Below, piece by piece: positions 29,784 to 45,340 of a stretch of 64,000 bases of DNA. Position 1 is the stretch's first letter. The number at the start of each line of letters is the position of its first letter. Under the pieces are notes generated by a model that did not search any database, was not told where the DNA came from, and was given only the letters and a program-made list of their open reading frames with translations. The DNA is from Candidatus Zixiibacteriota bacterium. GTDB taxonomy: Bacteria; RBG-13-66-14; B26-G2; WVWN01. The translations under genes and the position numbers were made by a program. Where the stretch lies: contig JASFLY010000013.1 of assembly GCA_050117845.1 (NCBI GenBank), positions 6,829 through 70,828 on the forward strand. The letters run 5' to 3'.

Positions 29784-30055
29784 TTTCCTATCATCTCCGG
29801 ACTTTTCGTATGTATAAGTGTAATAAAAACCACGTATAAAAGTCAAGGTGATTTGGGGTTAAACGTGCCGTCAGATGTTACCATATGGCGGCCTCAACGA
29901 AGCTGCGGGGAACGGCGGGCGTAAAGCCCGCCGCTTCAATATTGAGTAACAAATGCAGGTTCCCGCTTCCGAGTCCTTGATTGGCCGGCGATATAACATT
30001 ATAATGGGCGAGTAATTATTATACCTCACCGGAACCACAGCGAAGGGGTGCACCC

Positions 30056-31860: not shown

Positions 31861-31951
31861 CCCATATGATTTAGGAAAATAATCCGGCGGGGTCGCCGGA
31901 AAAACCCATATGATTTCGGAAAAAAACCGCCCGAACGGGCGGCTTTTTTGG
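31861..31951. repeat. Two tandem ~45-bp imperfect direct repeats (CCCATATGATTT[A/C]GGAAAA... + GC hairpin)
   Basis: Direct comparison of 31861-31905 with 31906-31951. Each unit carries a CATATG palindrome and a GC hairpin. Confidence 0.6.
31921..31949. terminator. Bidirectional rho-independent terminator (A7, CCGCCC-GAAC-GGGCGG, T6) shared by convergent fhs and the radical SAM gene
   Basis: GC stem with flanking A- and T-tracts. Additional GC hairpins lie at 31757-31781 and 31790-31808. Confidence 0.7.
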
Positions 31952-32036: not shown

Positions 32037-33530
32037 TCAATCGCTGGGGTTCGCCCGGGTCGCCAACTCCTGCGGGGCGACGCGGGGGGAGTGGGCGCCG
32101 CAGCTCTCGGCGTCCGGTTCCTCCTGGCCCTCGGGCGTGGGGTAGAAGCCGAACTGCCGCATGGCCGCGAGTTTGGGCAGGACGTTATTTTCGAGGTCAA
32201 TGTGGAAGAAGCCGGGGAAGACGTCGGCGTTGTCGACGATGAGGTCGAAGTAGCTGTTGTACTTGTCGGGCAGCGAGACCTCGCCGCCCACGCAGACCTC
32301 GTGGCCGGTGAAGACGAACTCCGGAAAGAGGTAGGGGCAGAACTCGAGCGTCGTCTTGGCGGCCCATTCCTCGTAGATGGGCGTCTGCGGCAGCAGCGAC
32401 AGCAGGCTCGGGAGGATGCGCGCCCCCATCATTCGGAACGAGACCATCTGGAAGAGCGACTGGTGGAAGTCCTCCATCGTCTCGAACGGGAATCCCCACA
32501 CGTAGAAGGCGTCGACGCGGGGGAAGATTTCTATCGCCTGCGGGATGAGGTCCAGCGTCTCCTGGGCCGTGAATCCTTTCTTGATGAGCCCTAGGATGCG
32601 GTCGGAGCCGGACTCGATGCCGAAGCGCAACTCCAGGCAGCCGCTGTCGGCCATCGCCTTCATCATCTCCACGTCGCAGAGGTTGACGCGGCCGAAGGCC
32701 TTCCAGTTGACGTCGAGGCCGGACCCCTCGAGTTCCCGGCAGAACTCCATGACCTGCTTCTTGCCCGAGACGAAGAACTCGTCCTGGAATAAAAAGAGGT
32801 CTACGCCCGCCTCCTCGTGCAGGACGCGCATCTCGTCCACGATGCTCTTCGCGCTGCGGGAGTAGCTCTCGTAGTTCCAGACGGGCGCCACCGAGCAAAA
32901 GGTGCAAGGGTAGGGGCAACCGCGGCTCGTCATCATGCCGTAGCCGGCGTACTCGCCGAGCTCTATCTTGTGGAAGGCGGGCAGGGGAATGCCGTCGAGG
33001 TCGGCCATGCGTTCCCGGTTCGGGTTGTGGACGACGCGGCCTTCGTCGCGGTAGGAGATGCCCGCCACGGCCGAGAGGTCTCCCCCGCGCGAGAGGGTCC
33101 CGACGAGCTCGGGGCCCGTGAGTTCCGCCTCGCCCCGGCAGACGACGTCCACCCACGGGAAGCGCGTCAATACCTTGTCCTCCACCGACTTCGACCCCAC
33201 GCCCCCCAGGACGAGCTTCCGGTCCGGGTAGCGCTCCCGCAGGGCCCGGAGGGCCATGAGGGAGAAGGGCAGGAGGTTGGCCATGCACGACAGGCCGATG
33301 ACGGGCGCCGGGTCGTCCAGGTAGTCGAGGAAGACGTCCATGTCGAACGGGTCGTCCGACGGGCAGCGCTGGTAGTCGCGGAAGTCGACGTCGAAGCCGG
33401 CGTCCTCCAGCGCCGTGGTCAGGTAGAGCGGCCCGAGGGGGACGTGCAGTTCGCGCTCGACCTCCTCGCCGTAGCGGATAAAAAGCATGTTTAGATTTAC
33501 GAGCGTGATGTCGCCGGGCATATCATTCAC
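32037..33530 (-). CDS. B12-binding (class B) radical SAM enzyme
   Basis: N-terminal cobalamin-binding-like Rossmann region (LGPLYLTTALEDAGFDVDFRD...VIGLSCM), then the radical SAM CxxxCxxC motif (SRGCPYPCTFCS) and a glycine-rich SAM-binding region. Its start overlaps the upstream paralog by 8 nt, suggesting co-transcription. Confidence 0.8.
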   Translation of the reverse strand: MNDMPGDITLVNLNMLFIRYGEEVERELHVPLGPLYLTTALEDAGFDVDFRDYQRCPSDDPFDMDVFLDYLDDPAPVIGLSCMANLLPFSLMALRALRERYPDRKLVLGGVGSKSVEDKVLTRFPWVDVVCRGEAELTGPELVGTLSRGGDLSAVAGISYRDEGRVVHNPNRERMADLDGIPLPAFHKIELGEYAGYGMMTSRGCPYPCTFCSVAPVWNYESYSRSAKSIVDEMRVLHEEAGVDLFLFQDEFFVSGKKQVMEFCRELEGSGLDVNWKAFGRVNLCDVEMMKAMADSGCLELRFGIESGSDRILGLIKKGFTAQETLDLIPQAIEIFPRVDAFYVWGFPFETMEDFHQSLFQMVSFRMMGARILPSLLSLLPQTPIYEEWAAKTTLEFCPYLFPEFVFTGHEVCVGGEVSLPDKYNSYFDLIVDNADVFPGFFHIDLENNVLPKLAAMRQFGFYPTPEGQEEPDAESCGAHSPRVAPQELATRANPSD

Positions 33531-34242
33531 CGGTTCCTTCGCTTGGTTTGTCGGGTTGTATCCCCACGCTGAGCGGTATTATCGGTTTGGGGTGGGGGTT
33601 GGACGCTTCTACTTCTATCGTGACGGCCGTCCGTTCTCCCGCTCGGACTTGTACGCCCGGCAAGGTTGCGAGGGCAAAATCGTCGCTGGGGCGGAACGCG
33701 TATAACTCGTAAGTTCCGGGGCGCAGGTTTCTAAAGCGGAAGCCGCCGTCTTTTCCGGGCCGGGCGTAAAAATCGGTCCCCGCGATATTGACCCATACGT
33801 CGCTTCCGGGGCCGCCGGACGCGCCGACAACGACGCCGGTTATTACGCCGGTGTCATCGGCGATTTCCCCCGCAGGTATTTCCTCCGGGTTCGCGGGCTC
33901 CGGCGCCTCGCGGGAGATTTCCGGCGTTCCCGTTTCGGCCGCGCGTTCGTTTCCTTCTCCCTTGCACCCGGAGGCCGCCGTCCCCATCGCCGCGAGCATT
34001 GCCGTAGCGGTCGCGCCGAGTAGTACGGGCCGCAGGCTCGGCCTCACCTTCGTACGAGCTATTATTGCTTTAAGCTGTTCCTCGGGCACGGCGCCCAGCA
34101 ACGCCGCCTCGGCCGGCGTCAACGCGAGCGCGACGTCGTCGGCCGCGCCGGCACGTTTCGCCAGTAACGCTTTCCTGAAGGCCGGGTCCACCGCGGCCTT
34201 CTTGATTAATACCTCTATATTTCGGGACAACGGCGCCGCCAT
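33523..34242 (-). CDS. Paralog P1: conserved N-domain, hydrophobic helix ending ...ASGC, Pro/acidic spacer, CarboxypepD_reg-like domain, GIQPDKP tail
   Basis: N-domain NIEVLIKKAAVDPAFRKALLAKRAGAADDVALALTPAEAALLGAVPEEQLKAIIARTKV. C-domain GVITGVVVGASGGPGSDVWVNIAGTDFYARPGKDGGFRFRNLRPGTYELYAF. Confidence 0.7.
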   Translation of the reverse strand: MAAPLSRNIEVLIKKAAVDPAFRKALLAKRAGAADDVALALTPAEAALLGAVPEEQLKAIIARTKVRPSLRPVLLGATATAMLAAMGTAASGCKGEGNERAAETGTPEISREAPEPANPEEIPAGEIADDTGVITGVVVGASGGPGSDVWVNIAGTDFYARPGKDGGFRFRNLRPGTYELYAFRPSDDFALATLPGVQVRAGERTAVTIEVEASNPHPKPIIPLSVGIQPDKPSEGTGE

Positions 34243-34243
34243 G

Positions 34244-34951
34244 TCATTCGCCTCTCTCGTCGGGCCAGTCCGGCAGGATACCTGCCGGTACTGGTCTGAG
34301 GCGGATTTCGTCTTTTGTATTTAGCTCCAACGAAACTTCCGTTTTTACCCCAACTTCCGCTTCGATCCGGGAACGGTTTAAAGGCGCATAACCGTCCACG
34401 TCGAAAATGAGAGTGTAGGTGCCGGGGAGAACGGGGGAGAGGACGTAGAAGCCGCGGCTATTCGTAACCGTTTCCTGGCCGGTCTCGTCAATTATGACCT
34501 CGGCGTTAACGAACGGCTTGCCGAACTCGTTGATGACGCGGCCGTAGATGACGCCGGCGTCCTCGGGTGTGTCGATATCGTCGGCGTTGTCGATATCGTT
34601 ATCTAAGGGCGCGTCCGGGATATCGGGCCCGGGGTCAATGCCGGTGACGATTAGCTCCCATTTATTCTCATCCTCGCCGTACGCCCCGGCGGTCAATGCC
34701 GCGAGCATCGCCGTAGCGGTCGCGCCGAGCAGTACGGGCCTCAGGCTCGGCCTTACCTTCGTACGAGCTATAATTGCTTTAAGATGTTCCTCTGGCACGA
34801 CGCCCAGCAACGCCGCCTCGGCGGCCGTTAGCGTAAGCGCGACTTCCTCGGCCGCGCCGGCACGTTTCGCCAGCAACGTCTTCCTGAAGGCCGGGTCCAC
34901 CGCGGCTTTCTTGATCAATACCTCGATATTTCGGGACAGCGGGGCCGCCAT
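34244..34951 (-). CDS. Paralog P2: same N-domain, CarboxypepD_reg-like C-domain
   Basis: N-domain nearly identical to P1. C-domain GVIYGRVINEFGKPFVNAEVIIDETGQETVTNSRGFYVLSPVLPGTYTL. Ends GILPDWPDERGE. Confidence 0.7.
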   Translation of the reverse strand: MAAPLSRNIEVLIKKAAVDPAFRKTLLAKRAGAAEEVALTLTAAEAALLGVVPEEHLKAIIARTKVRPSLRPVLLGATATAMLAALTAGAYGEDENKWELIVTGIDPGPDIPDAPLDNDIDNADDIDTPEDAGVIYGRVINEFGKPFVNAEVIIDETGQETVTNSRGFYVLSPVLPGTYTLIFDVDGYAPLNRSRIEAEVGVKTEVSLELNTKDEIRLRPVPAGILPDWPDERGE

Positions 34952-34952
34952 G

Positions 34953-35660
34953 TCATTCGCCCTCTCCGTCGGGCCGGTCGGGCCGGATGCCGGTTCCCAT
35001 GCCGCTACCGTAAAGCTCTATGCCGGGTTGAATGTATACCTGCAACGAAACGTCGGTTTTCATCCCTTCCCGGACTTCGACGTCTTTTTGTTTTTCCCTT
35101 TCCGCGCCCGGTACGTAGACGACGACGGTATATTTCCCCGGCGGAACGGGGGACACGACGTAATAGCCGTGGCGGTTCGTGATGGTGTCGATTTCCAACT
35201 CTTCGATTTGTACGGTTATAAATGGTACGGGCTCGCCGTCCTGGTCGCGGATGCAGCCGTAGATGAGGCCAGCCCCCTCCGGGACCTCGAGACCCTCCGG
35301 GCTGTCCATCGTATAGCTGTACGTTTCCGGCGGAACGCCGGGTTGGGCGCCGTAGCTTTTGACCGGTGCGTCGTCGACTTCGGCGGGAGTCGCCCGGGTC
35401 GCGAGGGCCGCGAGCATCGCCGCCGCCGCGTAACCGAGGAACACGGGACGGAGACCCGGGCTCACCCTGGTCCGGCCCACGATCGCTTTGAGCTGGTCCT
35501 CGGGCACGGCTTCGAGTATCGCCGCCTCGGCGGCCGTCAGCGTAAGCGCGATGTCGTCGGCCGCGCCGGCGCGCTTCTCGAGTAGCTTCTTCTTGAAGGC
35601 CGGGTCGACCGCGGCCTTGTGGATTAATACTTCGACGTTCCGGGGGGCCTCTCCGGGCAT
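34953..35660 (-). CDS. Paralog P3: same N-domain, CarboxypepD_reg-like C-domain
   Basis: MPGEAPRNVEVLIHKAAVDPAFKKKLL.... C-domain GLIYGCIRDQDGEPVPFITVQIEE...NRHGYYVVSPVPPGKYTV. Ends GIRPDRPDGEGE. Confidence 0.7.
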   Translation of the reverse strand: MPGEAPRNVEVLIHKAAVDPAFKKKLLEKRAGAADDIALTLTAAEAAILEAVPEDQLKAIVGRTRVSPGLRPVFLGYAAAAMLAALATRATPAEVDDAPVKSYGAQPGVPPETYSYTMDSPEGLEVPEGAGLIYGCIRDQDGEPVPFITVQIEELEIDTITNRHGYYVVSPVPPGKYTVVVYVPGAEREKQKDVEVREGMKTDVSLQVYIQPGIELYGSGMGTGIRPDRPDGEGE

Positions 35661-35661
35661 A

Positions 35662-36357
35662 TTATTCGCCTTTCTCTTCGGGGAGGTCGGGGCGGATTCC
35701 CGTTACGGGGTGTTCTCCGGGGCCGAGGATCAGTTTTACCGATACTTCGGTTTTCATCCCTTCCCGCACTTCGACGTGGGAGCGGGGCTCTTTCCCGTAT
35801 CCGGACATCGCGAAGCTGAGGTCGTGGAAACCCGGGGGGACCGGCGTCAGGACATAGAAACCGTAGCGATTCGTTGCCGTCTCCATCCCCAGATCGACGA
35901 TCGTTACGACTACGTTCGAAGCCGGGTCGCCGAACTCGTCGACGACGCGGCCGAAGATAACGCCGGCGTCGTCGGGTACGTCGATATCCGCGGGGTCGTT
36001 TATAGTACTGTCGTAAATCCGGGGAGGGATAATCGGGTCGGCGCCGAAATTAATAACGGTCTCCCGCTGACTCGCTTCCTCGCCGTACGCCGCGGCGGCC
36101 AGCGCCGCCAGCATCGCCCCGGCGGTCGCGCCGAGTAGTACGGGCCGCAGGTTCGGGCTCACCTTCGTCCGGCCTATGATGGTTTTTAGCTGTTCGTCGG
36201 ACACGGCCTCGAGCATCGCGGCTTCCGCCGGCTCGAGCGCGAGCGCGATGTCGTCCGCGGCCCGGGCCCGTTTCGACAGGAGCGTTTCCTTGAACGCCGG
36301 ATCCACGGCGGCCTTTTTGATCAGCACTTCGACGTTCCGGGGGATTTCGCGCCGCAT
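35662..36357 (-). CDS. Paralog P4: same N-domain, CarboxypepD_reg-like C-domain
   Basis: MRREIPRNVEVLIKKAAVDPAFKETLL.... C-domain GVIFGRVVDEFGDPASNVVVTIVD...NRYGFYVLTPVPPGFHDL. Ends GIRPDLPEEKGE. Confidence 0.7.
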   Translation of the reverse strand: MRREIPRNVEVLIKKAAVDPAFKETLLSKRARAADDIALALEPAEAAMLEAVSDEQLKTIIGRTKVSPNLRPVLLGATAGAMLAALAAAAYGEEASQRETVINFGADPIIPPRIYDSTINDPADIDVPDDAGVIFGRVVDEFGDPASNVVVTIVDLGMETATNRYGFYVLTPVPPGFHDLSFAMSGYGKEPRSHVEVREGMKTEVSVKLILGPGEHPVTGIRPDLPEEKGE

Positions 36358-36358
36358 A

Positions 36359-36907
36359 TTATTTACCTTTCTCTTCCGGCACGTCGGGCCGAATGCCGGT
36401 TTCTATGTCCATGGTCGATGGGTAGGGTTCGACCGTCGCGGCCGTTTCGGCCGAGGCCTCTTCTGAATACGGGTCGTCGGGATAATCGGGGTCGATTCCC
36501 CGGTCTATCGGGTCCTCCTCGGGCCGCGGGGGCTTGCACCCGGAAGCGGCCAGAGCCGCCAGCATAGCGGCCGCCACGGCTCCCAGGAACGCTGGCCGCA
36601 GGCTCGGGCTCACCTTCGTCCGGCCTATGATGGCCCGGAGCTGGTCCTCGGGGACGGCGCCCAGCATCGCGGCCTCGGCCGGCTCGAGCGATAGGCCGAT
36701 GTCTTCGGCCGCCCGGGCCCGTTTGGATAATAATACCTTTTTGAACGCCGGGTCCACCGCCGCCTTCTTCACCAGGACCTCGACGCCGCGCGGGACTTCG
36801 CCCATGCTGCGGCCCGAGCGCGGCGGTTGGCCGCCGACTATCGTCGTCTTCACGACCTCCGGCTCTCCGGGTCGGGCCATCTTCACTCTATCGGTGTGTT
36901 CGCTCAT
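36359..36907 (-). CDS. Paralog P5: TTIVGGQPP N-extension, N-domain, helix ending ...ASGC, acidic/Pro tail only (no globular C-domain)
   Basis: MSEHTDRVKMARPGEPEVVKTTIVGGQPPRSGRSMGEVPRGVEVLVKKAAVDPAFKKVLL.... Tail carries GIDPDYPDDP and GIRPDVPEEKGK. Confidence 0.65.
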   Translation of the reverse strand: MSEHTDRVKMARPGEPEVVKTTIVGGQPPRSGRSMGEVPRGVEVLVKKAAVDPAFKKVLLSKRARAAEDIGLSLEPAEAAMLGAVPEDQLRAIIGRTKVSPSLRPAFLGAVAAAMLAALAASGCKPPRPEEDPIDRGIDPDYPDDPYSEEASAETAATVEPYPSTMDIETGIRPDVPEEKGK

Positions 36908-36917
36908 GCTTCCTCCG

Positions 36918-37649
36918 TTAAGGCCTGTCGGGTCGGATGCCGTCGATGGCCGGGCTGCGGTTCGGCGACCCGGCGCCGTCTTCCTTTTTCACCAGTACAA
37001 AGGTAACGCTGGTTTTGTAGTCTTTCAAGATATATATGTTCTCCTGGATGTCGGCTTCGTACCCCGGTTTCGACGCTTTAACCGACCAACACCCGAGCCG
37101 TACGTTTTCTATTTCGTATTCTCCGGCGGCGTTGGTGGTGGTAGATTTATCGCCTTCCATCGTGCTGACCGTAATTTTTACGTTACTAATAGGCCGGTTT
37201 TCGGAGTTCAGGACGCGGCCGAATAATACGCTATATTCCGCTTCCAGGTCCATATCTTCCGGTGCGACGTTAGGATCTCGACTGGGCGGAGCGCCAGGGG
37301 GACGGATGGCGTCCGGCGGGATGCTGCCTGGCGAAATGCCGTAAGTCTTCTCACCGGCCCGCCCGGAGGCCGGCGTTATAACTGTAGTCCCTATCGCCGC
37401 CAACATCGCCGTCGCCGCGGACCCCAGGAAAGCGGGCCGCAGGCCCGGCTTGACCTTAGTCCGGTTTATTATAGCGCGGAGTTGGTCCTCGGGGACGGCA
37501 TTTATCACCGCGGCCTCGGCCGGCTCGAGCGCAAGGCCGATGTCTTCGGCCGCCCGGGCCCGCTTGGATAATAATACCTTTTTGAAGGCCGGGTCAACCG
37601 CGGCTTTTTTTATCAGGACCTCAACGTTACGGGGAATCTCCCTCGACAT
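36918..37649 (-). CDS. Paralog P6: same N-domain, divergent CarboxypepD_reg-like C-domain
   Basis: MSREIPRNVEVLIKKAAVDPAFKKVLL.... C-domain VLFGRVLNSENRPISNVKITVSTMEGDKSTTTNAAGEYEIENVRLGCWSV. Ends GIRPDRP. Confidence 0.7.
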   Translation of the reverse strand: MSREIPRNVEVLIKKAAVDPAFKKVLLSKRARAAEDIGLALEPAEAAVINAVPEDQLRAIINRTKVKPGLRPAFLGSAATAMLAAIGTTVITPASGRAGEKTYGISPGSIPPDAIRPPGAPPSRDPNVAPEDMDLEAEYSVLFGRVLNSENRPISNVKITVSTMEGDKSTTTNAAGEYEIENVRLGCWSVKASKPGYEADIQENIYILKDYKTSVTFVLVKKEDGAGSPNRSPAIDGIRPDRP

Positions 37650-38463
37650 ATAACTTGCCTTTCTTCGGCGGTAAATCGGGCCGGATGCCTAATCCGCCGG
37701 CACACGGGTCAGGCGACCGGCTGCCATCCTCTATCTGCACCCAGACGGGCGTACGTTCGCCGGCAATTACTTCTATGCCCTCGTAAAAGGCGATTTCCTC
37801 GTTCGTGTAAGGGTCGGCGACGATTAGATTATACTCGCCGGGCGCGACTTGGTTGAATACGAAGTCACCTTTTTCGCCGGGGATGGCGTACGCGTCGCTC
37901 CCCTCGAGGGTGACGACGACGTCTGTAACCGGGAAATCCTCCGGGACGTACACGACGCCCGTAATGACGCCCCTATCGGCCGGGATTTCGCCGGTCGGTA
38001 TCTCTTCCGGGTCCGCCCGATGTCGCTCTTCTATGACGGCGACCGTATGTCCCTTGACTAAATCTATGTCGCGACGTTCGGCCGCCTTTTTCGAACAGGA
38101 CGTACCGATTCCCAGCGCCGCCAGCATCGCCGTCGCGGCGTAACCGAGGAATGCGGGCCTAAGCTTCGGGCTTACGCGCGTGTGGGCGATTATCCCCTCG
38201 AGTTGGGCGAGAGGGACGGCCGCCAGCATCGCGGCTTCTTCGGGGGTAAGCTTGAGGCCGATTGACTGCGCGGCCTCGGCACGTTTTTCGAGTAGCATAT
38301 CCCTGAAGGCCGGGTCCACCGCGGCCTTCTTGACCAGGACCTCGATGCCCCGCGGAATGGCCCGGGGTATCGCCGCCGCTTCGGGCGGCCGGCCGCCCAC
38401 AATCGTCGTCCGGGCGGCATCGGGGCCGGCCTTGTCGCGGCGCCGGGGACCGTCGTCTCCCAT
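37627..38463 (-). CDS. Paralog P7 (first gene of operon 2): TTIVGGRPP N-extension, N-domain, CarboxypepD_reg-like C-domain. Its stop codon has mutated to TTA, so the frame reads 8 codons into P6.
   Basis: MGDDGPRRRDKAGPDAARTTIVGGRPPEAAAIPRAIPRGIEVLVKKAAVDPAFRDMLL.... C-domain GVITGVVYVPEDFPVTDVVVTLEGSDAYAIPGEKGDFVFNQVAPGEYNL. The junction reads GGC AAG TTA T ATG, versus GGC GAA TAA T ATG elsewhere. Confidence 0.7.
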   Translation of the reverse strand: MGDDGPRRRDKAGPDAARTTIVGGRPPEAAAIPRAIPRGIEVLVKKAAVDPAFRDMLLEKRAEAAQSIGLKLTPEEAAMLAAVPLAQLEGIIAHTRVSPKLRPAFLGYAATAMLAALGIGTSCSKKAAERRDIDLVKGHTVAVIEERHRADPEEIPTGEIPADRGVITGVVYVPEDFPVTDVVVTLEGSDAYAIPGEKGDFVFNQVAPGEYNLIVADPYTNEEIAFYEGIEVIAGERTPVWVQIEDGSRSPDPCAGGLGIRPDLPPKKGKLYVEGDSP

Positions 38464-38517
38464 TACAATCTCCCTTACGCTATTCCCTCAAATGAACAAA
38501 TATCGTTTAACGTAAAT

Positions 38518-38546
38518 ATTATATACGTATTTTGGACACGGTGCAA
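38518..38546 (-). promoter_or_regulatory. Sigma70 consensus promoter on the minus strand (TTGCAC-17-TATAAT) driving operon P7..P1 and the radical SAM gene
   Basis: The reverse complement of the AT-rich 38464-38690 gap contains TTGCACcgtgtccaaaatacgtaTATAAT. An AAGGGAG RBS lies before the P7 ATG. Confidence 0.5.
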
Positions 38547-38690
38547 AGCCGGCGGTTTTAATCCTAATATCCGATGCACGATTTAAAGCCGGCCGCGCTC
38601 ATGTTCGGCTATATGGGGCCGCGGCGCATCCAGCGGTATCTCAATGTGATATGCGGCCATATTAAAGTATATTATTAACTACGTCGGGCG

Positions 38691-39656
38691 CTATTCCCGG
38701 CCTTTCCCGGAATCCGCGAGGGACGTTAAATCCTCCGGGTAGGGCGAGAAAAAGGTCTGGTTCTCCAAATACCCTTCGCCGAAGCGGACGACGTATCCCC
38801 GCAGGACATTCAGCGGTACGCTGAGGGGGACCCGTTTCGCCCGGAATCGCTCGAGCGCGTCCAGGAAGAACGCCTTTTCCTCGCGGCCGAGTTTATCCTT
38901 GAAGTAACCCAGGCCGTGCGTGAGGACGTTGACGTTCGATTGATAACGGGGCGGCCGGGCCAAAGCCGCCGTAAAGCCGTCCTCGTACGCCGCGAGCGTT
39001 TCCGATAAGGGCCCTCGGCCCGCCGCCGCAACGACGCGGCCTAGTTCGCGCATCCGCGTTTGGTTGTATGCCATCAGAAGGAACTTGTTGGCGGCGTGGA
39101 ACGCGACGACGTCTTTCGCCTTTCCTTTTTCTCTCAGTTCGCGGAAGGACGCCAACGCGAATAACTTCGTAAGGAAGTGTTCCCGCAGCCGCGCGTTCTT
39201 GAGGCGGCCTTCGTCCTCGAACGCCAGCCGGCCGAAGCGCTCCAGGGCCGCCCCGCCGAAGAAACCCGCCCCCTTGCCGGAGGGCGCGGCTCCCTCGGCG
39301 GCCGGATATATCTTGACGTCCTTGATGCCGGAGCTGGGGGAGCGGCTCTTGAGGATGAAGCCGTCGACGGGGCCAAGGACGTCCAGAAACGACGCCGCGA
39401 AGGTCTCCATCTTCGCTGTGAGGTCGGCTCCCGTCGCCGGTTGCACCAGCCGCCGCTTGCCGCCGGCCTCGACGACGCGGACCGTTTCCCGGGGGACCCC
39501 CAGGCCAATCTCGACCTCGGGGCAAACGGGTATGAATTTAACGTGGGGTTTGAGCGCGGCGACGAATTCGTCGTTGACGATCGACCCGTCGTAGCGGACG
39601 GCGTCGAAGCCGAGGCAACGGCTGACGACTACCGTGGGTTTGGCGAATTCCCTCAT
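38691..39656 (-). CDS. DUF523/DUF1722 (YbbK/YbgA-family) fusion protein, last gene of operon P12..P8
   Basis: MREFAKPTVVVSRCLGFDAVRYDGS... (DUF523-like, with conserved Cys and the VRYDG motif), and a C-terminal half resembling DUF1722. Start set at the internal ATG 39656; the upstream track extension is Arg/Gly-rich GC noise. Confidence 0.6.
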   Translation of the reverse strand: MREFAKPTVVVSRCLGFDAVRYDGSIVNDEFVAALKPHVKFIPVCPEVEIGLGVPRETVRVVEAGGKRRLVQPATGADLTAKMETFAASFLDVLGPVDGFILKSRSPSSGIKDVKIYPAAEGAAPSGKGAGFFGGAALERFGRLAFEDEGRLKNARLREHFLTKLFALASFRELREKGKAKDVVAFHAANKFLLMAYNQTRMRELGRVVAAAGRGPLSETLAAYEDGFTAALARPPRYQSNVNVLTHGLGYFKDKLGREEKAFFLDALERFRAKRVPLSVPLNVLRGYVVRFGEGYLENQTFFSPYPEDLTSLADSGKGRE

Positions 39657-39709
39657 GCGGAGCCGGGTCCCCCCGGCGACGGCGCTATCCCGCGGCCCGG
39701 GCACTGCCC

Positions 39710-40621
39710 CTAGTCCCCGGGGGCGACGAATACGAACGGATAAGTTATCGTGACGCCCTCGTCCGGCGCGGCCGCGAAGCGCCACGTTCTAATCCTGGCG
39801 ATTATCGCGTCGCGCAGATACGTATCGCCGAGGGTGTCTTCGACTATGACGACGTAGGTGACGGTCCCCTCCGGCGACACGCCGAAGCGCGTTACCACCT
39901 TGCCCCCGGCGAGGGACGGATTCCTGGACACCGCCTCGTCGTACGCGCCCTGTATACTCGAGAAATTCTTGCGGACGGTAGCGATTACGCCGGCTCTCGT
40001 TCGGTCCGCCGGCTTCCGGTGCGGTCCCCGCTTAGTTGGCTCGTCGGTAGTTATCGTCTCGGGTCGGATCCCCAGGGAACCGGGTCGAACAACCACGCTG
40101 CTACGTTTTAACGTCGGTAGTCCGGAAGCGGTGACCGATCCCGAGCGAGGCCGGTCGCTACGCATACCGCCGCTTCCCCCGGATACGGCGTAACCGTGTC
40201 GTTCCGCCACGCCGGTTTTTATCGGGGCGATCTTGGGCGAAGATTCCGCCGTATTTTCCGTTTCGCCGCCGGGCGACGTAGCGTTGAAATCATTGCCCTG
40301 GCACAACACCAACGTACCGCCGAGGGCCGCGAGCATCAGGCGGCCTACGTTAGACAGGAAGGCCGGCCGCGCTTCGGGGTCGACGTACGTACTGCTAACT
40401 ATTTGTTCGAGTTGGGGGAGGGGAGCGGCCGCGAGGATTGCGGCCTCTTCGGGGGTGAGTTCCAGGCCGATGGCCCGGGCGGCCTCGGCCCTTTTTTCGA
40501 ACAACAAACGCTTGAACGCCGGGTCCACCGCGGCTTTTTTTATAAGGACTTCCACGCCGCGAGGCACTTCCCGCGCGGCCGGTACGCCGGCCGTATCGTT
40601 ACTGTCCGTAACCATGCCCAC
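39710..40621 (-). CDS. Paralog P8: same N-domain, hydrophobic helix, Ser/Pro spacer, TonB_C-like C-domain
   Basis: ...EVPRGVEVLIKKAAVDPAFKRLLFEKRAEAARAIGLELTPEEAAILAAAPLPQLEQIV.... C-domain GVIATVRKNFSSIQGAYDEAVSRNPSLAGGKVVTRFGVSPEGTVTYVVIVEDTLGDTYLRDAIIARIRTWRFAAAPDEGVTITYPFVF. Confidence 0.7.
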   Translation of the reverse strand: MGMVTDSNDTAGVPAAREVPRGVEVLIKKAAVDPAFKRLLFEKRAEAARAIGLELTPEEAAILAAAPLPQLEQIVSSTYVDPEARPAFLSNVGRLMLAALGGTLVLCQGNDFNATSPGGETENTAESSPKIAPIKTGVAERHGYAVSGGSGGMRSDRPRSGSVTASGLPTLKRSSVVVRPGSLGIRPETITTDEPTKRGPHRKPADRTRAGVIATVRKNFSSIQGAYDEAVSRNPSLAGGKVVTRFGVSPEGTVTYVVIVEDTLGDTYLRDAIIARIRTWRFAAAPDEGVTITYPFVFVAPGD

Positions 40622-40640
40622 GCCCTCTCTTCGGTAGTAC

Positions 40641-41522
40641 TTAATTGCTTTCGGCGGAAAATATTATCGTAGCCGCGGCGCTAACGTTCCCTTCGTCGAT
40701 ACCCCGGAAGTGCCACGATCCGACTTCCCGGACGACGGCATCGGAAAACGTCGACGAACTGACGTTACTACCGATTACGGCCACGTCGTAAACGCTCCCG
40801 ACCGCTTTAATGTTAAAGCCGATCACCATTTTACCGTGTTTGGGGGCGTCGCCGTTATTCGACATAACGGCGTAAAGCATTCGCATGTCCGGAATAAAGG
40901 TATTGACCTCTTCCCGGACGTCCGCGGTATCCCGGAAGGGGGCCCCCACGGCCGGCGGAACGACCACGACGTCGACGATGTTGACGTTGAACCCCTTGGG
41001 CCGGTTTTTTAAATCACTATCGGGCCGAATTCCGCCCAGGCCGCCGCCGGCGCCGCCGCCGGTTACCGTTCCGTTCCCGCCCGAATATAAGCCCGTACCC
41101 ACGTCGGGGGCCAGGGTTCCGCTCCCACCGGTGTCCGCCGTCTCGGCCGTCTCGGCGGTTTCCGGTTGCGGCGGGTAGTCGGGGCGGATCCCTTTCGACT
41201 TTACGTCGACCGTCCCGTACTCGGCCGCCGGGTCCTTACACCCGGCCGCGGCGAGCGCCGCCAGCATGGTCGCGGCCGCCGCTCCCAGGAACGCGGGACG
41301 GAGGTTCGGACTCACCCTGGTCCGGCCCACGATGGCCCGAAGCTGGCTCTCGGGCACGGCTTTCAGCATCGCGGCCTCGGCGGGCGTTATATCGAGCGCG
41401 ATGTAGGCCGCGGCGCCGGCGCGTTCGGCGAATAAAGCCTTCTTGAACGCCGTGTCCACCGCGGCCTTTTTTATTAGAACCTCTATATTCCTCGGTATCT
41501 CTATAGCCATTTCACTCATCAA
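40641..41522 (-). CDS. Paralog P9: same N-domain, helix ending ...AAGC, two GIRPD motifs in a Gly/Thr-rich spacer, TonB_C-like C-domain
   Basis: MMSEMAIEIPRNIEVLIKKAAVDTAFKKALF.... C-domain FIPDMRMLYAVMSNNGDAPKHGKMVIGFNIKAVGSVYDVAVIGSNVSSSTFSDAVVREVGSWHF. Confidence 0.7.
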   Translation of the reverse strand: MMSEMAIEIPRNIEVLIKKAAVDTAFKKALFAERAGAAAYIALDITPAEAAMLKAVPESQLRAIVGRTRVSPNLRPAFLGAAAATMLAALAAAGCKDPAAEYGTVDVKSKGIRPDYPPQPETAETAETADTGGSGTLAPDVGTGLYSGGNGTVTGGGAGGGLGGIRPDSDLKNRPKGFNVNIVDVVVVPPAVGAPFRDTADVREEVNTFIPDMRMLYAVMSNNGDAPKHGKMVIGFNIKAVGSVYDVAVIGSNVSSSTFSDAVVREVGSWHFRGIDEGNVSAAATIIFSAESN

Positions 41523-42348
41523 CCGGTTCGAAAATGAAAGGATACGTGACCGTAACGTCGCCCTCCTCGATGGGGGGAAAACGCCAGGTACGGACGCGCG
41601 TGAGTATAGTGCTGTTCAAGAACTCGTCGCCTATGCCGTCTGACGTGATATTGCCGGCGGTTACCAATCCGTCGGAATCGATAGTTATTTCTAATTCGAC
41701 CGTTCCGTGTTTAATAGACGGGTTCTTTCTATACACGTTCTCAATACCTGGTAAATGCCTCTCAAACACGGTCCCAATAACTTTAGCCGACCTTTTCGGG
41801 TCGCCCGCTCCGGGTCCTATTATCAAGGTGGGCAAGGATTCGACGATAATCGGCTTCCTAGGTTCTGATTGAATACCGGGCGGAAAATCTCCTCTAATGC
41901 CGAAGCACAACCCCCCTATCGACTCCCTCCCGGCGTCGTTGCTATCGGTTAACGGAGGTTTTTCTTTTACGCTATCGACCGGGCCCATAATGCTTTCCTC
42001 CGCCGTCCCGGGTTGGTTCTCGGGAGGAGGGTCGGGGCGCAAGCCGAAAGTTTCATCCGTCGGGTTGTCGCAGGCCAGGAACGCCGGCCCCAGCGCCGCC
42101 AGCATCGCGCCGGCGGCGTAGCCCAGGAATGCCGGCCTGACGCCGGGGCTTACGCACGTGCGCGTCACTATGGCTTCGAGTTGGGGGAGGGGGGCGGCCG
42201 CGAGGAGCGCGGCCTCTTCGGGGGTGAGTTCCAGGCCGATGGCCCGGGCGGCCTCGGCCCTTTTTTCGAACAACAAACGCTTGAACGCCGGGTCCACCGC
42301 GGCTTTTTTAATAAGCACTTCGACGCCGCGGCGTATGCCATGTTCCAT
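41512..42348 (-). CDS. Paralog P10: same N-domain, TonB_C-like C-domain. Start set at the internal MEHGIRRG.
   Basis: MEHGIRRGVEVLIKKAAVDPAFKRLLFEKRAEAARAIGLELTPEEAALLAAAPLPQLEAIV.... C-domain KVIGTVFERHLPGIENVYRKNPSIKHGTVELEITIDSDGLVTAGNITSDGIGDEFLNSTILTRVRTWRFPPIEEGDVTVTYPFIF. The track start at 42465 would overlap P11 by 115 nt. Confidence 0.65.
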   Translation of the reverse strand: MEHGIRRGVEVLIKKAAVDPAFKRLLFEKRAEAARAIGLELTPEEAALLAAAPLPQLEAIVTRTCVSPGVRPAFLGYAAGAMLAALGPAFLACDNPTDETFGLRPDPPPENQPGTAEESIMGPVDSVKEKPPLTDSNDAGRESIGGLCFGIRGDFPPGIQSEPRKPIIVESLPTLIIGPGAGDPKRSAKVIGTVFERHLPGIENVYRKNPSIKHGTVELEITIDSDGLVTAGNITSDGIGDEFLNSTILTRVRTWRFPPIEEGDVTVTYPFIFEPVDE

Positions 42349-42349
42349 A

Positions 42350-42847
42350 TTACCCTCCGTCTTCGCCAGGGTAATCCGGCCGCATTCCGCCTTTCCCCTC
42401 CGTCCCGGACCCGGATTCCCCGACGGGTTCCTCCGCCGTTCCCTCCACGTCGGCGCTGCGTTCATCCCCGGCGGCGGTCTCCGCCGTTTCCGGCGTGGGT
42501 GGGTAGTCCGGGTTGATACCGGTGGGGGGCGCCGGGTACGGCGTATCGTTGGGCGCGGGGTTCTTGCACCCCGCCGCGGCCAGCGCCGCCAGCATCGTCG
42601 CGGCCGCCGCCCCCAGGAACGCGGGGCGGAGTTTCGGGCTCACCTGCGTCCTGTTAATAATGGCCCGCAGTTGGTCCTCGGCGGCGTTGTCGATCAGCGC
42701 CCGTTCGGAAGGCGTAAGGTCGAGGGCGATAATCGCGGCCGCCCCGGAACGTGCCTCGATTAACTTCCTTTTGAAGGCCGGGTCTATCGAGGCTTTTTTT
42801 ATTAACACCTCGACGCCGCGGGGGATTTCGAAGGTGGCCTCGCTCAT
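42350..42847 (-). CDS. Paralog P11: N-domain, helix ending ...AAGC, acidic/Pro tail only. Start set at MSEATFEIPRG.
   Basis: ...EIPRGVEVLIKKASIDPAFKRKLIEARSGAAAIIALDLTPSERALIDNAAEDQLRAIINRTQV.... Tail carries GINPDYPPTPETAETAA and GMRPDYPGEDGG. Confidence 0.6.
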   Translation of the reverse strand: MSEATFEIPRGVEVLIKKASIDPAFKRKLIEARSGAAAIIALDLTPSERALIDNAAEDQLRAIINRTQVSPKLRPAFLGAAAATMLAALAAAGCKNPAPNDTPYPAPPTGINPDYPPTPETAETAAGDERSADVEGTAEEPVGESGSGTEGKGGMRPDYPGEDGG

Positions 42848-42857
42848 ATAGCCTCCA

Positions 42858-43430
42858 TCACGGCCTATCGGGACGGACACCGCGGGTCACGAGGTCGTCC
42901 CTGCCGTCGTCGGCCGTGGCCTGTTCGTCCTTGGCCAGCTCCTCGCCTTCGTCTTCGGCGGGGGGAGCGCCGGTTTCGGGTTCGCTCTCGGCGGTCGTCG
43001 GCCCCTCGACGTCGGGGACGTCGGGCCGGGCGCCGCCGGCGACCGGGGGAAAACATCCCGCCACCGCTATTCCCAGCGCCGCGACGATGACGGCCGCGGA
43101 CCAGCTCAACAGGGCCTTGCGGTGGCCGGGTTCCACCTTGGTATGGTCGACGATGGCCTCGATTTGCGCCGCCGGGGCCGCGCGCAGCATGGCCTCCTCG
43201 GCGGCCTCGAGTTTTAGGCCGATCTCGGCGGCGGCCGCCTCGCGCCGGTCGAGGAGTAGGGCCCGGAACTCCTCGTCGACCGCGGCTTTTTTCATAAGAA
43301 CCTCTACGCCGCCGGGGATCTCGCCCACGGCCTTGCCGCAGCCGGGCGGCCGGCCGCCCACGATTGTGGTCCGTACGGCCGGTTTTTCGACGGGGGAGTC
43401 GCCTTCGTCGCGCGAGGGGATATTCGCCAT
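42858..43430 (-). CDS. Paralog P12 (first gene of operon 1): TTIVGGRPP N-extension, divergent N-domain, acidic/Pro tail ending GVRPDRP
   Basis: MANIPSRDEGDSPVEKPAVRTTIVGGRPPGCGKAVGEIPGGVEVLMKKAAVDEEFRALLL.... Start at ATG 43430 with an AAGGAAGGA RBS; the longer track start is a spurious extension. Confidence 0.65.
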   Translation of the reverse strand: MANIPSRDEGDSPVEKPAVRTTIVGGRPPGCGKAVGEIPGGVEVLMKKAAVDEEFRALLLDRREAAAAEIGLKLEAAEEAMLRAAPAAQIEAIVDHTKVEPGHRKALLSWSAAVIVAALGIAVAGCFPPVAGGARPDVPDVEGPTTAESEPETGAPPAEDEGEELAKDEQATADDGRDDLVTRGVRPDRP

Positions 43431-43484
43431 AACGGTCCTTCCTTGAATCGGTGGATAGGGTCGCCGCCGGGTATAATCATTTAA

Positions 43485-43513
43485 AGTATATACCATCCGG
43501 GGGAATTTGTAAA
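43485..43513 (-). promoter_or_regulatory. Sigma70-like promoter on the minus strand (TTACAA-16-TATACT) for operon P12..P8 and DUF523/1722
   Basis: The reverse complement of the 43431-43600 intergenic region contains ttacaaattcccccggatggtatatact. Confidence 0.45.
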
Positions 43514-43615: not shown

Positions 43616-43644
43616 TTGACATAGCGTTAATATTGGGGCATAAT
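43616..43644 (+). promoter_or_regulatory. Sigma70-like promoter TTGACA-17-CATAAT (divergent from the P12 promoter)
   Basis: Consensus -35 hexamer, 17-nt spacer, and an AAGGAGG RBS before ATG 43666. Confidence 0.5.
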
Positions 43645-43665
43645 TTTAATAAGGAGGTTAGGAAA

Positions 43666-44427
43666 ATGCGAAAATATATCTCCGCAATCGCGTTTCTAAT
43701 TATCGCGTTCACGGCGGGCGCGCTGGCGTGGGGGACTTTGGTTGCGTCTTACCCCTGTCCCGAGGGCTCCCGTTTTCCGAACGGCCTGGCCTTTCGCAAT
43801 AGTCGCCTGTATATCGCGACCAACGACGTTAATTATACGGTATGGCAGGTGCGGCCGAATACGGGCAGCGTCCTCTTGTCCCACCAGGCGCCGTCGCGGC
43901 CTATTATGGGCCTGGCCGCGGGCCTCGCCGGCGAAACCGTTTCGTACTGGATATCTTCGACGAACGGGGCCGGCAGGATATACCAGGTGGGTTATCTCAG
44001 CGGCTCGGTCGTCAATTCTTTCCCGCCGTACGGCTCCCATCCGATGGGCCTCGCTTTCCGGAGCGCGACGCGGATGTACCATACCGACTATAACGCCCGC
44101 AGGCTATTCGTAATACACCCGGTGACCGGGTCCGTTTACGATTCGTACCCCCTCGATTTCGGGCCTTGCGACTGCGCCTACGGCGGCGGGTACCTGTGGA
44201 TAGCCGACGGGTACGGCGAACTGATTCATCAGTGCGATTTGACCGGCTCGACGCTGGCGTCGTTCTCGACGGCGGAGTACGGCTTCTGTTCCGGTTTGGC
44301 CTATTACAATCAATTCGTTTGGGTCGGGATCAACGAACCCATGCATTCGATATTGAAATTCGAGGTCGACCCGTTTCACGCCGTCGAACCGGCGTCGGTG
44401 GGCCGGGTAAAAGCGCTGTTCCGCTGA
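43666..44427 (+). CDS. Hypothetical secreted repeat protein (family with the 1..596 and 45524..46318 genes)
   Basis: Signal peptide MRKYISAIAFLIIAFTAGALA followed by WGTLVASYPCPEG. Recurrent ...TGSV..S(Y/H)... repeats suggest a beta-propeller or beta-rich fold. C-terminus ends ...SVGRVKALFR. Confidence 0.55.
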   Translation: MRKYISAIAFLIIAFTAGALAWGTLVASYPCPEGSRFPNGLAFRNSRLYIATNDVNYTVWQVRPNTGSVLLSHQAPSRPIMGLAAGLAGETVSYWISSTNGAGRIYQVGYLSGSVVNSFPPYGSHPMGLAFRSATRMYHTDYNARRLFVIHPVTGSVYDSYPLDFGPCDCAYGGGYLWIADGYGELIHQCDLTGSTLASFSTAEYGFCSGLAYYNQFVWVGINEPMHSILKFEVDPFHAVEPASVGRVKALFR

Positions 44428-44445: not shown

Positions 44446-44474
44446 CAAAAGCCGCCCCTCGGGGCGGCTTTATT
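44446..44474. terminator. Bidirectional terminator (GCCGCCCC-TC-GGGGCGGC, flanked by AAAA and TTTATT)
   Basis: A GC hairpin between convergent genes. Confidence 0.6.
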
Positions 44475-44510
44475 CACTAATACGGCTTTTTGCGGGGTCG
44501 CGCCGTCTTA

Positions 44511-44951
44511 CTACTTCTTCTCGAGCCGTTCCGTGCCTGTTTTCGTGCTTCCCTCGTAGGCCGTTATTCCCTCGAGCGAATTGTCCGGGTTGACCGTGTA
44601 CGCGACTACGCCGAGTACGCCGGCCTCGTCCCGATATCCCACGACGAATAAATCTCCCCGCCACAAAGCCACGCCGGGGTAGGCGATCCTGTCGCCCACG
44701 CGGTAGGTAACCCAATATACGTGGCGCCCCGGTTCGACGTCGACTTCGCAGTCGTAGGCGTCGCCGTCCGGGTCGACGCCGCTGCCGGCGTACGTTCCGA
44801 CTATGTCTATTTCGGTTTCGGTGGCCGTTTCGGCGGCCGTCGGGGGAGTCGCGGTCTCGGGTTCGGCCGTGCCCTCGGCCGCCTTGCGGCAAGACGCGGG
44901 GATGACGGCTACCAACGCGACGGCGACGATTATACCGTAAACTTTGTTCAT
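44511..44951 (-). CDS. Hypothetical secreted protein / possible lipoprotein
   Basis: Signal peptide MNKVYGIIVAVALVAVIPASC. Paralog of the 44948..45340 gene, with shared ...GY...G.....Y.V.PD.SL.G.....G....GTE.LEK. Confidence 0.5.
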   Translation of the reverse strand: MNKVYGIIVAVALVAVIPASCRKAAEGTAEPETATPPTAAETATETEIDIVGTYAGSGVDPDGDAYDCEVDVEPGRHVYWVTYRVGDRIAYPGVALWRGDLFVVGYRDEAGVLGVVAYTVNPDNSLEGITAYEGSTKTGTERLEKK

Positions 44952-45340
44952 TGATTATTCCCCCCTGTCCCGTCGGTTTCATCCCTGTATAACTTCTCGG
45001 TACCGATTTCCTTGAAACCCGGCAGGCCGAGAGCTCCGTCCAGCGTGCCGTCCGGCAATATCTTGTAGAGCGCTACGCCGTAACCGATGTGGGCCGCGTA
45101 CCCGACGCATAGGTAACCGTCTTTTATGATGCCGATGCCTTCGTACCCGAATTCATCCTCGAATTCCCAAACTACCCGATAAACCTCCTCGGTTTTATTT
45201 ATATCTACTTTGCAGCCGTACGTGCCCGGTTCGTAGGGACGTTGGCCGAAGCCGGTATACTCGCCCGTGACGTCGTCGGGGGCGGTCGCCGCGAGCGCCA
45301 GCGCCGCCGCGGTTAGAGAGTATAAGATCACTCTTTTCAT
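44948..45340 (-). CDS. Hypothetical secreted protein (paralog of the 44511..44951 gene)
   Basis: Start set at MKRVILYSLTAAALALAATA (ATG 45340). C-terminal ...ILPDGTLDGALGLPGFKEIGTEKLYR aligns with its neighbour. Confidence 0.5.
   Translation of the reverse strand: MKRVILYSLTAAALALAATAPDDVTGEYTGFGQRPYEPGTYGCKVDINKTEEVYRVVWEFEDEFGYEGIGIIKDGYLCVGYAAHIGYGVALYKILPDGTLDGALGLPGFKEIGTEKLYRDETDGTGGNNQ

Follow-up and report, generated by a model that had tools for sequence, protein, structure and literature searches.

Nitrile hydratase leader peptide (NHLP) domains are the leaders of proteusin-type precursors (PMC2887384, PMC12537861) of ribosomally synthesized and posttranslationally modified peptides (RiPPs), and they are folded domains that bind or dock the RiPP-modifying enzymes (PMC12537861); Os1348 of Pseudomonas sp. 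Os17 is a putative modified precursor (PMC7726476). Domains of this clan are present in a family of 12 paralogs (P1 to P12) encoded in a 64,000-nucleotide stretch of a Candidatus Zixiibacteriota metagenome-assembled genome (assembly GCA_050117845.1, contig JASFLY010000013.1, positions 6,829 to 70,828; the window is this whole stretch, and coordinates are counted from its first nucleotide). All 12 genes are on the minus strand, from 33523 to 43496 (open reading frames [ORFs] as drawn), and P1, the last in the direction of transcription, is followed directly by a gene for a B12-binding radical S-adenosylmethionine (SAM) enzyme. An earlier reading of the letters alone (the sequence-only reading) had described a diversifying, envelope-spanning family with alternative C-terminal modules. 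The proteins are most likely substrates of the radical SAM enzyme and not simply envelope-spanning scaffolds, because the family is coupled in both directions to the highly conserved B12 radical SAM gene.

The locus resembles those of the proteusins in that a folded nitrile-hydratase-like N-terminal domain is encoded beside a cobalamin-dependent radical SAM enzyme, where proteusins pair TIGR03793 leaders with TIGR03975 C-methyltransferases of the B12 radical SAM type (for example, PoyB/PoyC), and in that each locus has several paralogous putative substrates, which are alike in the leader and vary toward the C terminus. Unlike in the proteusins, a hydrophobic helix, a putative signal or anchor that often has a lipobox-like motif, comes after the leader, and the part downstream can be a folded domain with a predicted periplasmic location; the family also has no double-glycine site and no conserved peptidase-transporter (67 loci) or epimerase, and the enzyme scores below the cut-off of every named family. 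Os1348 (NF038399; structure 6lk7; PMC7726476) represents the best-scoring curated family for the N-domain, with matches in both fold and sequence, but it stands alone as an 85-residue protein, and its gene is accompanied by those for a GNAT acetyltransferase, an HEXXH peptidase, and a SagB-type dehydrogenase, whereas the N-domain here is fused to a helix and a putative periplasmic region and has the B12 radical SAM gene as its sole conserved neighbor.

P8 to P10 are organized similarly to TonB, GltG (PglI), and GltJ (AgmX), with a predicted cytoplasmic N-terminal part, a single helix, a Pro/Gly-rich disordered linker, and a C-terminal domain of the TonB_C fold. They differ from these proteins in their NHLP-like N-domain and in that the same chassis bears unrelated modules or none; the Ser/His motif of the TonB anchor is also missing, the P8 helix (AFLSNVGRLMLAALGGTLVL) and the P10 helix (AFLGYAAGAMLAALGPAFLA) being without histidine when the sequence is read directly. 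The full-length GltG and GltJ models (NF033760/1) score far under their cut-offs (55.8 bits vs 650 for GltG and 28.3 vs 450 for GltJ), and P8 to P10 are therefore not GltG or GltJ. CarboxypepD_reg, or transthyretin-like, domains are common periplasmic or extracellular beta-sandwiches, and P1 to P4, P6, and P7 share fold and sequence family (PF13620, PF13715) with carboxypeptidase D and the N-terminal extension of SusC/RagA; unlike in those proteins, the domain stands alone between two copies of a short motif, G-I-R-P-D-x-P (GIRPDxP), on an NHLP-leader chassis and is joined to neither an enzyme nor a barrel. Anaerobic sulfatase-maturating enzymes act on a C/S-x-P-x-R motif, and QhpD acts on QhpC of quinohemoprotein amine dehydrogenase. 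By analogy with these, a cytoplasmic radical SAM enzyme would modify a short motif of a periplasm-bound protein prior to export, although those enzymes are of the SPASM/twitch type and not the B12 type, and their substrates have other motifs and no NHLP-like docking domain. No curated family model or retrievable paper covers the combination of leader, motif, and radical SAM enzyme, and the GIRPDxP motif was not found in the searchable literature (full text), although these literature nulls are absence of evidence only.

The paralogs are arranged in two tight arrays, P7 to P1 (38463-33523), with intergenic gaps of 1 to 10 nt or a short overlap, and P12 to P8 (43430-39710). Starts refined by ribosome-binding sites and database gene calls are 40615 for P8, 41510 for P9, 42348 for P10, 42847 for P11, and 43430 for P12, the last of which is the end coordinate given in the sequence-only reading. 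The shared N-terminal region (N-domain coordinates below) is exactly 82 residues long in all 12 paralogs, with zero indels and 44-89% pairwise identity. In addition, GIRPDxP, in the form G-[IV]-R-P-D-x-P or a recognizable variant, is present in all 12, although it was absent from the earlier description; motif A usually lies ∼17-20 residues past the helix and is often degenerate, and motif B is at or near the C terminus. The genes are as follows.

32037..33530, minus strand: B12-binding radical SAM enzyme, 497 amino acids (aa) as drawn; likely start at an ATG at about 33521, 1 nt past the P1 stop
33523..34242, minus strand: P1; N-domain 33982-34227 (NF038399 E 5.2e-8); helix and lipobox-like AASGC; CarboxypepD_reg 33610-33843 (PF13620 39.6 bits, E 6.8e-10); C-terminal GIQPDKP
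34244..34951, minus strand: P2; N-domain 34691-34936; helix; degenerate motif A GIDPGPDIP; CarboxypepD_reg 34322-34549 (PF13620 53.5 bits, E 3.2e-14; PF13715 E 1.2e-9); GILPDWP
34953..35660, minus strand: P3; N-domain 35400-35645; helix; CarboxypepD_reg 35040-35264 (PF13620 55.2 bits, E 9.5e-15); GIRPDRP
35662..36357, minus strand: P4 (P0191; NCBI name "carboxypeptidase-like regulatory domain-containing protein"); N-domain 36097-36342; helix; CarboxypepD_reg 35731-35958 (PF13620 47.5 bits, E 2.3e-12); GIRPDLP
36359..36907, minus strand: P5; TTIVGGQPP 36821-36847; N-domain 36548-36793; helix and lipobox-like AASGC; motif A GIDPDYP and motif B GIRPDVP; tail of 27% Asp+Glu and 18% Pro, with no domain match past the helix
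36918..37649, minus strand: P6; N-domain 37389-37634; helix; CarboxypepD_reg 36993-37226 (PF13620 53.0 bits, E 4.6e-14); C terminus ...GIRPDRP
37627..38463, minus strand: P7; TTIVGGRPP 38383-38409; N-domain 38110-38355; helix; CarboxypepD_reg 37747-37965 (PF13620 28.4 bits, E 2.2e-6, just under the cut-off of 32.3 bits); GIRPDLP
39710..40615, minus strand: P8 (annotated by NCBI as "TonB family protein"); N-domain 40319-40564; helix; long disordered linker with GMRSDRP and GIRPE; TonB_C/AgmX-type domain 39728-39994 (NF033768 69.8 bits, E 1.7e-19; PF03544 29.2 bits, E 1.2e-6; TIGR01352 30.1 bits, E 4.5e-7)
40641..41510, minus strand: P9; N-domain 41250-41495; helix and lipobox-like AAAGC; GIRPDYP, a Gly-rich stretch, and GIRPDSD; divergent TonB_C-like domain 40659-40931 (NF033768 35.4 bits, E 8.5e-9, below the cut-off of 40; Pfam TonB_C 14.6 bits, E 0.046; TIGR01352 15.4 bits)
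41512..42348, minus strand: P10 (also "TonB family protein"); ATG start at 42348 with a GGAGG ribosome-binding site; N-domain 42088-42333; helix; GLRPDPP and GIRGDFP; TonB_C/AgmX-type domain 41527-41790 (NF033768 63.7 bits, E 1.3e-17; PF03544 26.9 bits; TIGR01352 37.4 bits, E 2.4e-9)
42350..42847, minus strand: P11; N-domain 42578-42823 (NF038399 E 1.2e-4, the only domain match); helix and lipobox-like AAAGC; acidic/Pro-rich tail (20% Asp+Glu, 17% Pro) with GINPDYP and GMRPDYP; no globular module
42858..43430, minus strand: P12; start at 43430 with a AAGGAAGG ribosome-binding site; TTIVGGRPP 43344-43370; N-domain 43071-43316 (NF038399 E 4e-8); helix and lipobox-like AVAGC; acidic tail with GARPDVP and C terminus ...GVRPDRP; no globular module

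The enzyme matches PF02310 (44.4 bits, E 1.7e-11) and PF04055 (56.9 bits, E 3.7e-15), both above cut-offs, and contains a CPYPCTFC cluster motif of the CxxxCxxC form that is invariant across 37 orthologs; with an N-terminal B12-binding domain and a radical SAM core, it has the domain content of the class B (cobalamin-dependent) radical SAM enzymes. Its scores are under the cut-offs of all named NCBIfam families (ApyD, BchE, HpnJ, TIGR03975, and others), the best being ApyD at 164.8 bits against a cut-off of 750 (E 2.7e-48), with the RiPP C-methyltransferase family TIGR03975 at 1.2e-31, and the nearest solved structures are at only E 1e-14 (9ccb, CysS). The ApyD product is beta-methyltyrosine (PMC11117315). 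Enzymes from Zixibacteria, Planctomycetota, Chloroflexota, and Thermodesulfobacteriota are 68-87% identical, with about 190 invariant columns among the window enzyme and 36 orthologs, and this conservation could reflect strong constraint or recent horizontal spread. The invariant columns include a C-terminal C-G-A-H motif, and the enzyme is far more conserved than its putative substrates.

The linkage of family and enzyme holds from either side. Among 65 genome loci scanned from the family side, 58 have enough downstream DNA, and in 51 of these the last family member has an enzyme ortholog (665-1009 bits) immediately 3' of it and in the same orientation; the loci are from Zixibacteria, Coatesbacteria, Planctomycetota, Verrucomicrobiota, Lentisphaerota, Chloroflexota, and Thermodesulfobacteriota. 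Scanned from the enzyme side, on metagenome contigs with enough upstream DNA, 49 of 65 loci satisfy a strict rule of adjacency, and another ∼9 can be added after inspection, in which ORFs are fused or over-extended, members are truncated, or one member is divergent; true absences mostly concern enzymes of <60% identity. All-against-all clustering of flanking ORFs at 67 loci finds the radical SAM gene as the sole conserved neighbor, together with shadow ORFs overlapping the enzyme or family genes, and no conserved protease or transporter near the cassette. There is also no ExbBD-like gene among these conserved neighbors, the rest of the window and genome not having been screened for ExbB/ExbD.

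Some loci depart from this arrangement. At L074 (1791-4826), a single long ORF codes for a family N-domain (residues 33-114) and then the radical SAM enzyme in frame, and at L060 (1557-4214) and L103 (1561-4269) only an over-long enzyme ORF is seen; these long ORFs, of about 885-1011 aa, may be natural substrate-enzyme fusions, or read-through or assembly artifacts. The most divergent enzyme relatives (43-48% identity) have another upstream partner of about 180-210 aa (L144 3381-3932 and L149 4243-4866); the two partners resemble each other (LL(A/T)TVYT(I/M)P and "NIAG.PG"), are without an NHLP-like domain, and may represent a sister system whose substrates are of a different type.

The N-domain belongs to the nitrile-hydratase-alpha/NHLP clan of RiPP leaders and is of the Os1348 type. 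The first ∼62 residues of the shared region form a confident helical domain in the AlphaFold models of P7 and P8 (predicted local distance difference test [pLDDT] about 95), and the Os1348 family model NF038399 (cut-off, 40 bits) matches all 12 paralogs as well as 59 of 59 diverse homolog N-domains at E≤0.01. P7 scores above the cut-off, with 41.7 bits (45.8 for the isolated domain), and the other 11 score 22-36 bits (E 1e-4 to 4e-9). A profile of the 59 N-domains finds nitrile hydratase alpha (E 7e-6), the Os1348 structure 6lk7 (6e-4), and the NHLP leader 9cjx (8e-3), and Foldseek matches the N-domain of the P8 model to 6lk7 with a probability of 0.72. With the leader profile TIGR03793 (cut-off, 50.9 bits), no paralog reaches the cut-off, the best having E 0.11, and 4 of the 59 N-domains match at E≤0.01 (best, 1.5e-4).

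In the GIRPDxP motif, columns G, I, P, D, and P are nearly invariant, although the linkers around it are variable. There are nine strict matches among the window ORFs, all in the family, and homologs have up to six copies per protein, very often at the extreme C terminus (e.g., ...GIRPDRP). A second element, T-T-I-V-G-G-R/Q-P-P, lies ∼11-13 residues before the N-domain in 3 of the 12 window paralogs (P5, P7, and P12) and, as judged from a consensus of 143 and of 150 sequences, is found across phyla in most homologs. Like the GIRPD motif, it includes G-x-R-P; the AlphaFold model shows it as disordered, and members without it tend to be the last genes ahead of the radical SAM gene.

Profile searches of Pfam and NCBIfam (PF13620 gathering cut-off, 32.3 bits; NF033768 cut-off, 40 bits) reproduce the three C-terminal classes that the sequence-only reading proposed. 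CarboxypepD_reg, which it assigned to P1 to P4, P6, and P7, passes the PF13620 cut-off in all of these except P7, which is sub-threshold and in which the fold is confirmed by a model. The TonB_C/AgmX domain assigned to P8 to P10 passes PF03544, TIGR01352, and NF033768 in P8 and P10, with P9 divergent and below the cut-offs, and P5, P11, and P12 are indeed tail-only, with no domain match after the helix and tails of 20-27% Asp+Glu and 14-18% Pro. AlphaFold models of P7 and P8 compared using Foldseek have two different C-terminal folds. P7, the one modeled member of its class, has a beta-sandwich at residues 165-243 (pLDDT about 90) whose best Protein Data Bank (PDB) matches are the transthyretin-like domains of carboxypeptidases N/D (2nsm, E 7.7e-6; 5aq0, template modeling [TM] score 0.74-0.82). 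The P8 C-domain at residues 209-298 (pLDDT 92-97) has top PDB matches that are all TonB C-terminal domain, FusB, or TolAIII (probability 1.00, TM score 0.5-0.69, root mean square deviation 2-3 Å; E only about 1e-3). The C termini thus do not belong to a single fold, and the similarities to the two domain families are significant. A word-indexed homology search with the isolated P8 C-domain gave three candidates, none significant, and full-length P8 was used instead.

The modules occupy different sites relative to the motif, CarboxypepD_reg between motifs A and B and TonB_C after motif B, and the architecture is therefore that of beads on a string, with no swap at a single position. Tandem double TonB_C-like domains with a GIRPD motif between them are present in family members of 438-466 aa (P0127, P0130, and P0132; L008 175-1566). 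The domain calls are ordinary by themselves, and the point is the identity of the chassis that carries them.

The family is large. A query with P5 gives 650 homologs, and an exhaustive search with an N-domain profile finds 830 cluster representatives (50% identity) at E≤1e-10 and 1581 at E≤1e-3; the N-domain is within about 50 residues of the N terminus in nearly all of the 150 matches listed, with two exceptions. Among the best 150 representatives, CarboxypepD_reg is present in 14, ACP-like PP-binding domains in 11, TonB_C in nine, and TSP3 repeats in one, and about 77% have no recognizable module, with similar proportions in the genome loci. Tail-only is thus the commonest architecture and not a degenerate state, and a minimal chassis into which modules are inserted is therefore the apparent picture. 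With modules on 9 of 12 members, the window is unusual. Among P0178, P0192, P0182, P0184, and P0185, some members code for an OmpA peptidoglycan-binding domain behind a clear lipobox and are thus Pal-like, and others for ACP-like PP-binding domains. The latter were considered as a possible artifact of over-extended ORFs, which was rejected, as they are real ACP-like domains past the helix; the phosphopantetheine-attachment serine is missing from the three members read (P0182, P0184, and P0185).

The last ∼20 residues of the 82-residue region form an uncharged hydrophobic helix, with Arg/Lys N-terminal to it and acidic residues after it. A lipobox-like core (PROSITE PS51257 core [LIVMFWSTAG]2-[LIVMFYSTAGCQ]-[AGS]-C) follows the helix in 7 of the 12 paralogs and in 65 of 147 family members, its Cys lying 90-150 residues from the N terminus and thus outside the canonical rule; because of these lipobox-like motifs, many members may well be exported and cleaved and not anchored across the envelope. 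A predicted periplasmic location of the downstream part is supported by the TonB_C and OmpA modules, by the lipobox-like motifs, and by the Pal-like members with both lipobox and OmpA. The helix could be a plain membrane anchor, but a cleavable signal is at least as likely given how frequent the lipobox-like motifs are and given the Pal-like OmpA members.

These features are probably best explained if the proteins are envelope proteins, either exported or anchored in the membrane, whose built-in leader recruits the radical SAM enzyme to modify the motif before export. The identity of the domains, the motif, linkage to the enzyme from both sides, and mosaicism of the genes are shown by the analysis, whereas the enzyme's action, target, and chemistry, the topology of the proteins, and their cleavage are what we infer. 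Four parts make up the chassis, namely, TTIVGGRPP (optional), the helical NHLP-clan domain of 62 residues, the ∼20-residue hydrophobic helix, and an acidic, Pro-rich, putatively periplasmic string with one to several motifs. Folded modules are optional beads on this string, with CarboxypepD_reg between motif copies and TonB_C after the last motif, and OmpA and ACP-like domains elsewhere in the family. The putatively co-transcribed enzyme would dock on the NHLP-like domain in the cytoplasm, as on RiPP precursor leaders, and modify the GIRPDxP motif prior to export, and possibly TTIVGGRPP also, C-methylation being the most probable chemistry for an enzyme of this class. Export or anchoring would next be directed by the helix, with signal peptidase removing the leader where a lipobox or small residues follow, and the modules would serve as periplasmic cargo or binding heads. 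The paralogs diversify by tandem duplication, exchange or conversion of 5' chassis segments between neighbors, and module gain and loss.

Several points weigh against this interpretation. Seven genome loci with enough room have no enzyme nearby (L009, L040, L043, L057, L058, L062, and L067), an unrelated gene separates P8 to P12 from the enzyme in the window, and gene adjacency is correlative only. The ∼70% identity of the enzymes across phyla could reflect horizontal transfer and not a housekeeping role. Most paralogs are under the cut-off of the curated NF038399 model, the hydrophobicity of the helix is no more than moderate (Kyte-Doolittle maximum over 19 residues, 1.4-2.3), and a signal peptide preceded by a folded domain is unusual. 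Since B12 radical SAM enzymes have several chemistries, methylation of the motif is a guess.

It is more tentative, although possible, that the family represents a widespread and undescribed protein-maturation system, in which an NHLP-like leader ahead of a Sec or lipoprotein signal recruits a dedicated enzyme, the motif is modified before export, and signal peptidases remove the leader. Such a system would span uncultivated and anaerobic lineages, including Zixibacteria, Planctomycetota, Verrucomicrobiota, Chloroflexota, Thermodesulfobacteriota, and others. In about seven phyla, a leader-type NHLP domain and a short invariant motif occur together with one highly conserved cobalamin radical SAM enzyme. 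If the motif is indeed modified by this enzyme, the result would constitute a new posttranslational modification of envelope proteins, with RiPP leader recognition used in a new way, before a secretion signal and on folded cargo.

The proteins could instead be structural and envelope spanning, with a cytoplasmic N-domain, an anchor, a spacer, and a periplasmic module subject to swapping, in which case the radical SAM gene would be an unrelated neighbor and no modification would take place. The layout of P8 to P10, with anchor, Pro-rich linker, and TonB_C, is like that of TonB and Myxococcus GltG/GltJ, the modules vary much as first described, and the enzyme is missing near some loci. However, family and enzyme are adjacent at ∼88% of loci each way, in about seven phyla and with no other conserved neighbor, the N-domain clan is known for enzyme-docking leaders, and the invariant GIRPDxP motif is left unexplained; this reading is unlikely. 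Of the original description, one chassis of N-domain, helix, and spacer with alternative modules and a diversifying membership stands, and the envelope-spanning character is not established.

About equally improbable is that these are classical proteusin-type RiPP precursors, with the N-domain and helix forming a long leader, the GIRPDxP segments being methylated cores that are released as small products, and the paralogs constituting a combinatorial library. An NHLP-clan leader with a B12 radical SAM enzyme is known proteusin logic, the nearest named relatives of the enzyme include ApyD and TIGR03975, and RiPP loci typically have multicopy precursors in which a motif is repeated. However, no conserved peptidase-containing transporter, protease, or other tailoring gene is near the cassette, leader and core are not separated by a double-glycine site, the proteins have folded, predicted periplasmic modules (TonB_C, OmpA, and beta-sandwich) and lipobox-like motifs, and 68-87% identity of the enzyme across phyla is unusual for secondary metabolism.

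At the nucleotide level, identity between P1 and P2 is 89-93% in the first ∼90 codons, with an abrupt fall to about 45% thereafter, and P8 and P10 share 30 N-domain codons that are 96-100% identical. Among identical amino acids, identical codons account for 81% in the N-domain and 37% downstream in P1/P2, and for 80% and 33%, respectively, in P8/P10, against a background median of 50% for all pairs. Because synonymous-site identity is high in the 5' segment only, the 5' segments of P1/P2 and P8/P10 were recently exchanged and are not explained by purifying selection alone. The CarboxypepD_reg domain of P1 has its nearest counterpart in P7 (42% identity, against 26% to P2), and P9 and P11 share N-domain, helix, motif A, and a PETAETA stretch, to which P9 adds a TonB_C-like domain. 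The array offers a clean case in nature of paralogs diversifying through 5' gene conversion together with module insertion. Module class is clustered but labile on an N-domain tree, with 14 Fitch changes among 24 module-bearing members against a mean of 23 for shuffled labels, which is weak evidence from 82 columns.

It is very unlikely that no real shuffling has occurred and that the three classes are ancient vertical lineages with N-terminal similarity maintained solely by purifying selection on the chassis, for although module class is clustered on the tree and the chassis is strongly conserved at the protein level, the synonymous identity of P1/P2 and P8/P10 is raised only 5' of an abrupt breakpoint, P1 pairs with P2 in its N-domain and with P7 in its module, P9 and P11 have a chassis in common and differ by a whole domain, and 14 class changes are still required among so few module-bearing members.

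The arrays are accompanied by an unrelated gene and by candidate transcription signals.

38691 to about 39656, minus strand: 2-thiouracil-desulfurase-like (PF04463) and DUF1722 gene, unrelated to the family and located between the two arrays
38518..38547, minus strand: sigma-70-like promoter match upstream of P7, TTTGCA-18-TATAAT, 10/12 positions; consensus match only
43485..43513, minus strand: sigma-70-like promoter match upstream of P12, TTTACA-17-TATACT, 10/12 positions; consensus match only
31883..31900, minus strand: terminator-like hairpin 3' of the radical SAM gene, 7-pair stem (6 G-C) with a T-rich tail; consensus match only

The promoter match upstream of P7 would start a unit of P7 through P1 and the radical SAM gene, and that upstream of P12 would start a unit of P12 through P8, both as judged from consensus matches only. 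Two identical terminator-like hairpins on the plus strand (CCGGGCGGCCTCGG then CCCTTTTTTC; 40475-40488 and 42244-42257) are inside the N-domain coding regions of P8 and P10 and are a by-product of the near-identical conversion tract, not independent terminators.

The desulfurase-like/DUF1722 gene is missing from the syntenic arrays of related genomes (L002 and L004), and it looks like an insertion that splits one array. Synteny in Zixibacteria (window 28494-31723; L002 and L004) is conserved and runs from a dicarboxylate symporter through the array and the radical SAM gene to formate-tetrahydrofolate ligase and ThiC. The arrays of related genomes have only four to five members, so the 12-member array here is an expansion. 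Upstream of the array are three ORFs of 170-318 aa, at 43633-44427 (plus strand), 44470-44982 (minus strand), and 45524-46480 (minus strand), with no Pfam or NCBIfam match at E≤0.01; the ORF at 45524-46480 has relatives in four of the related loci.

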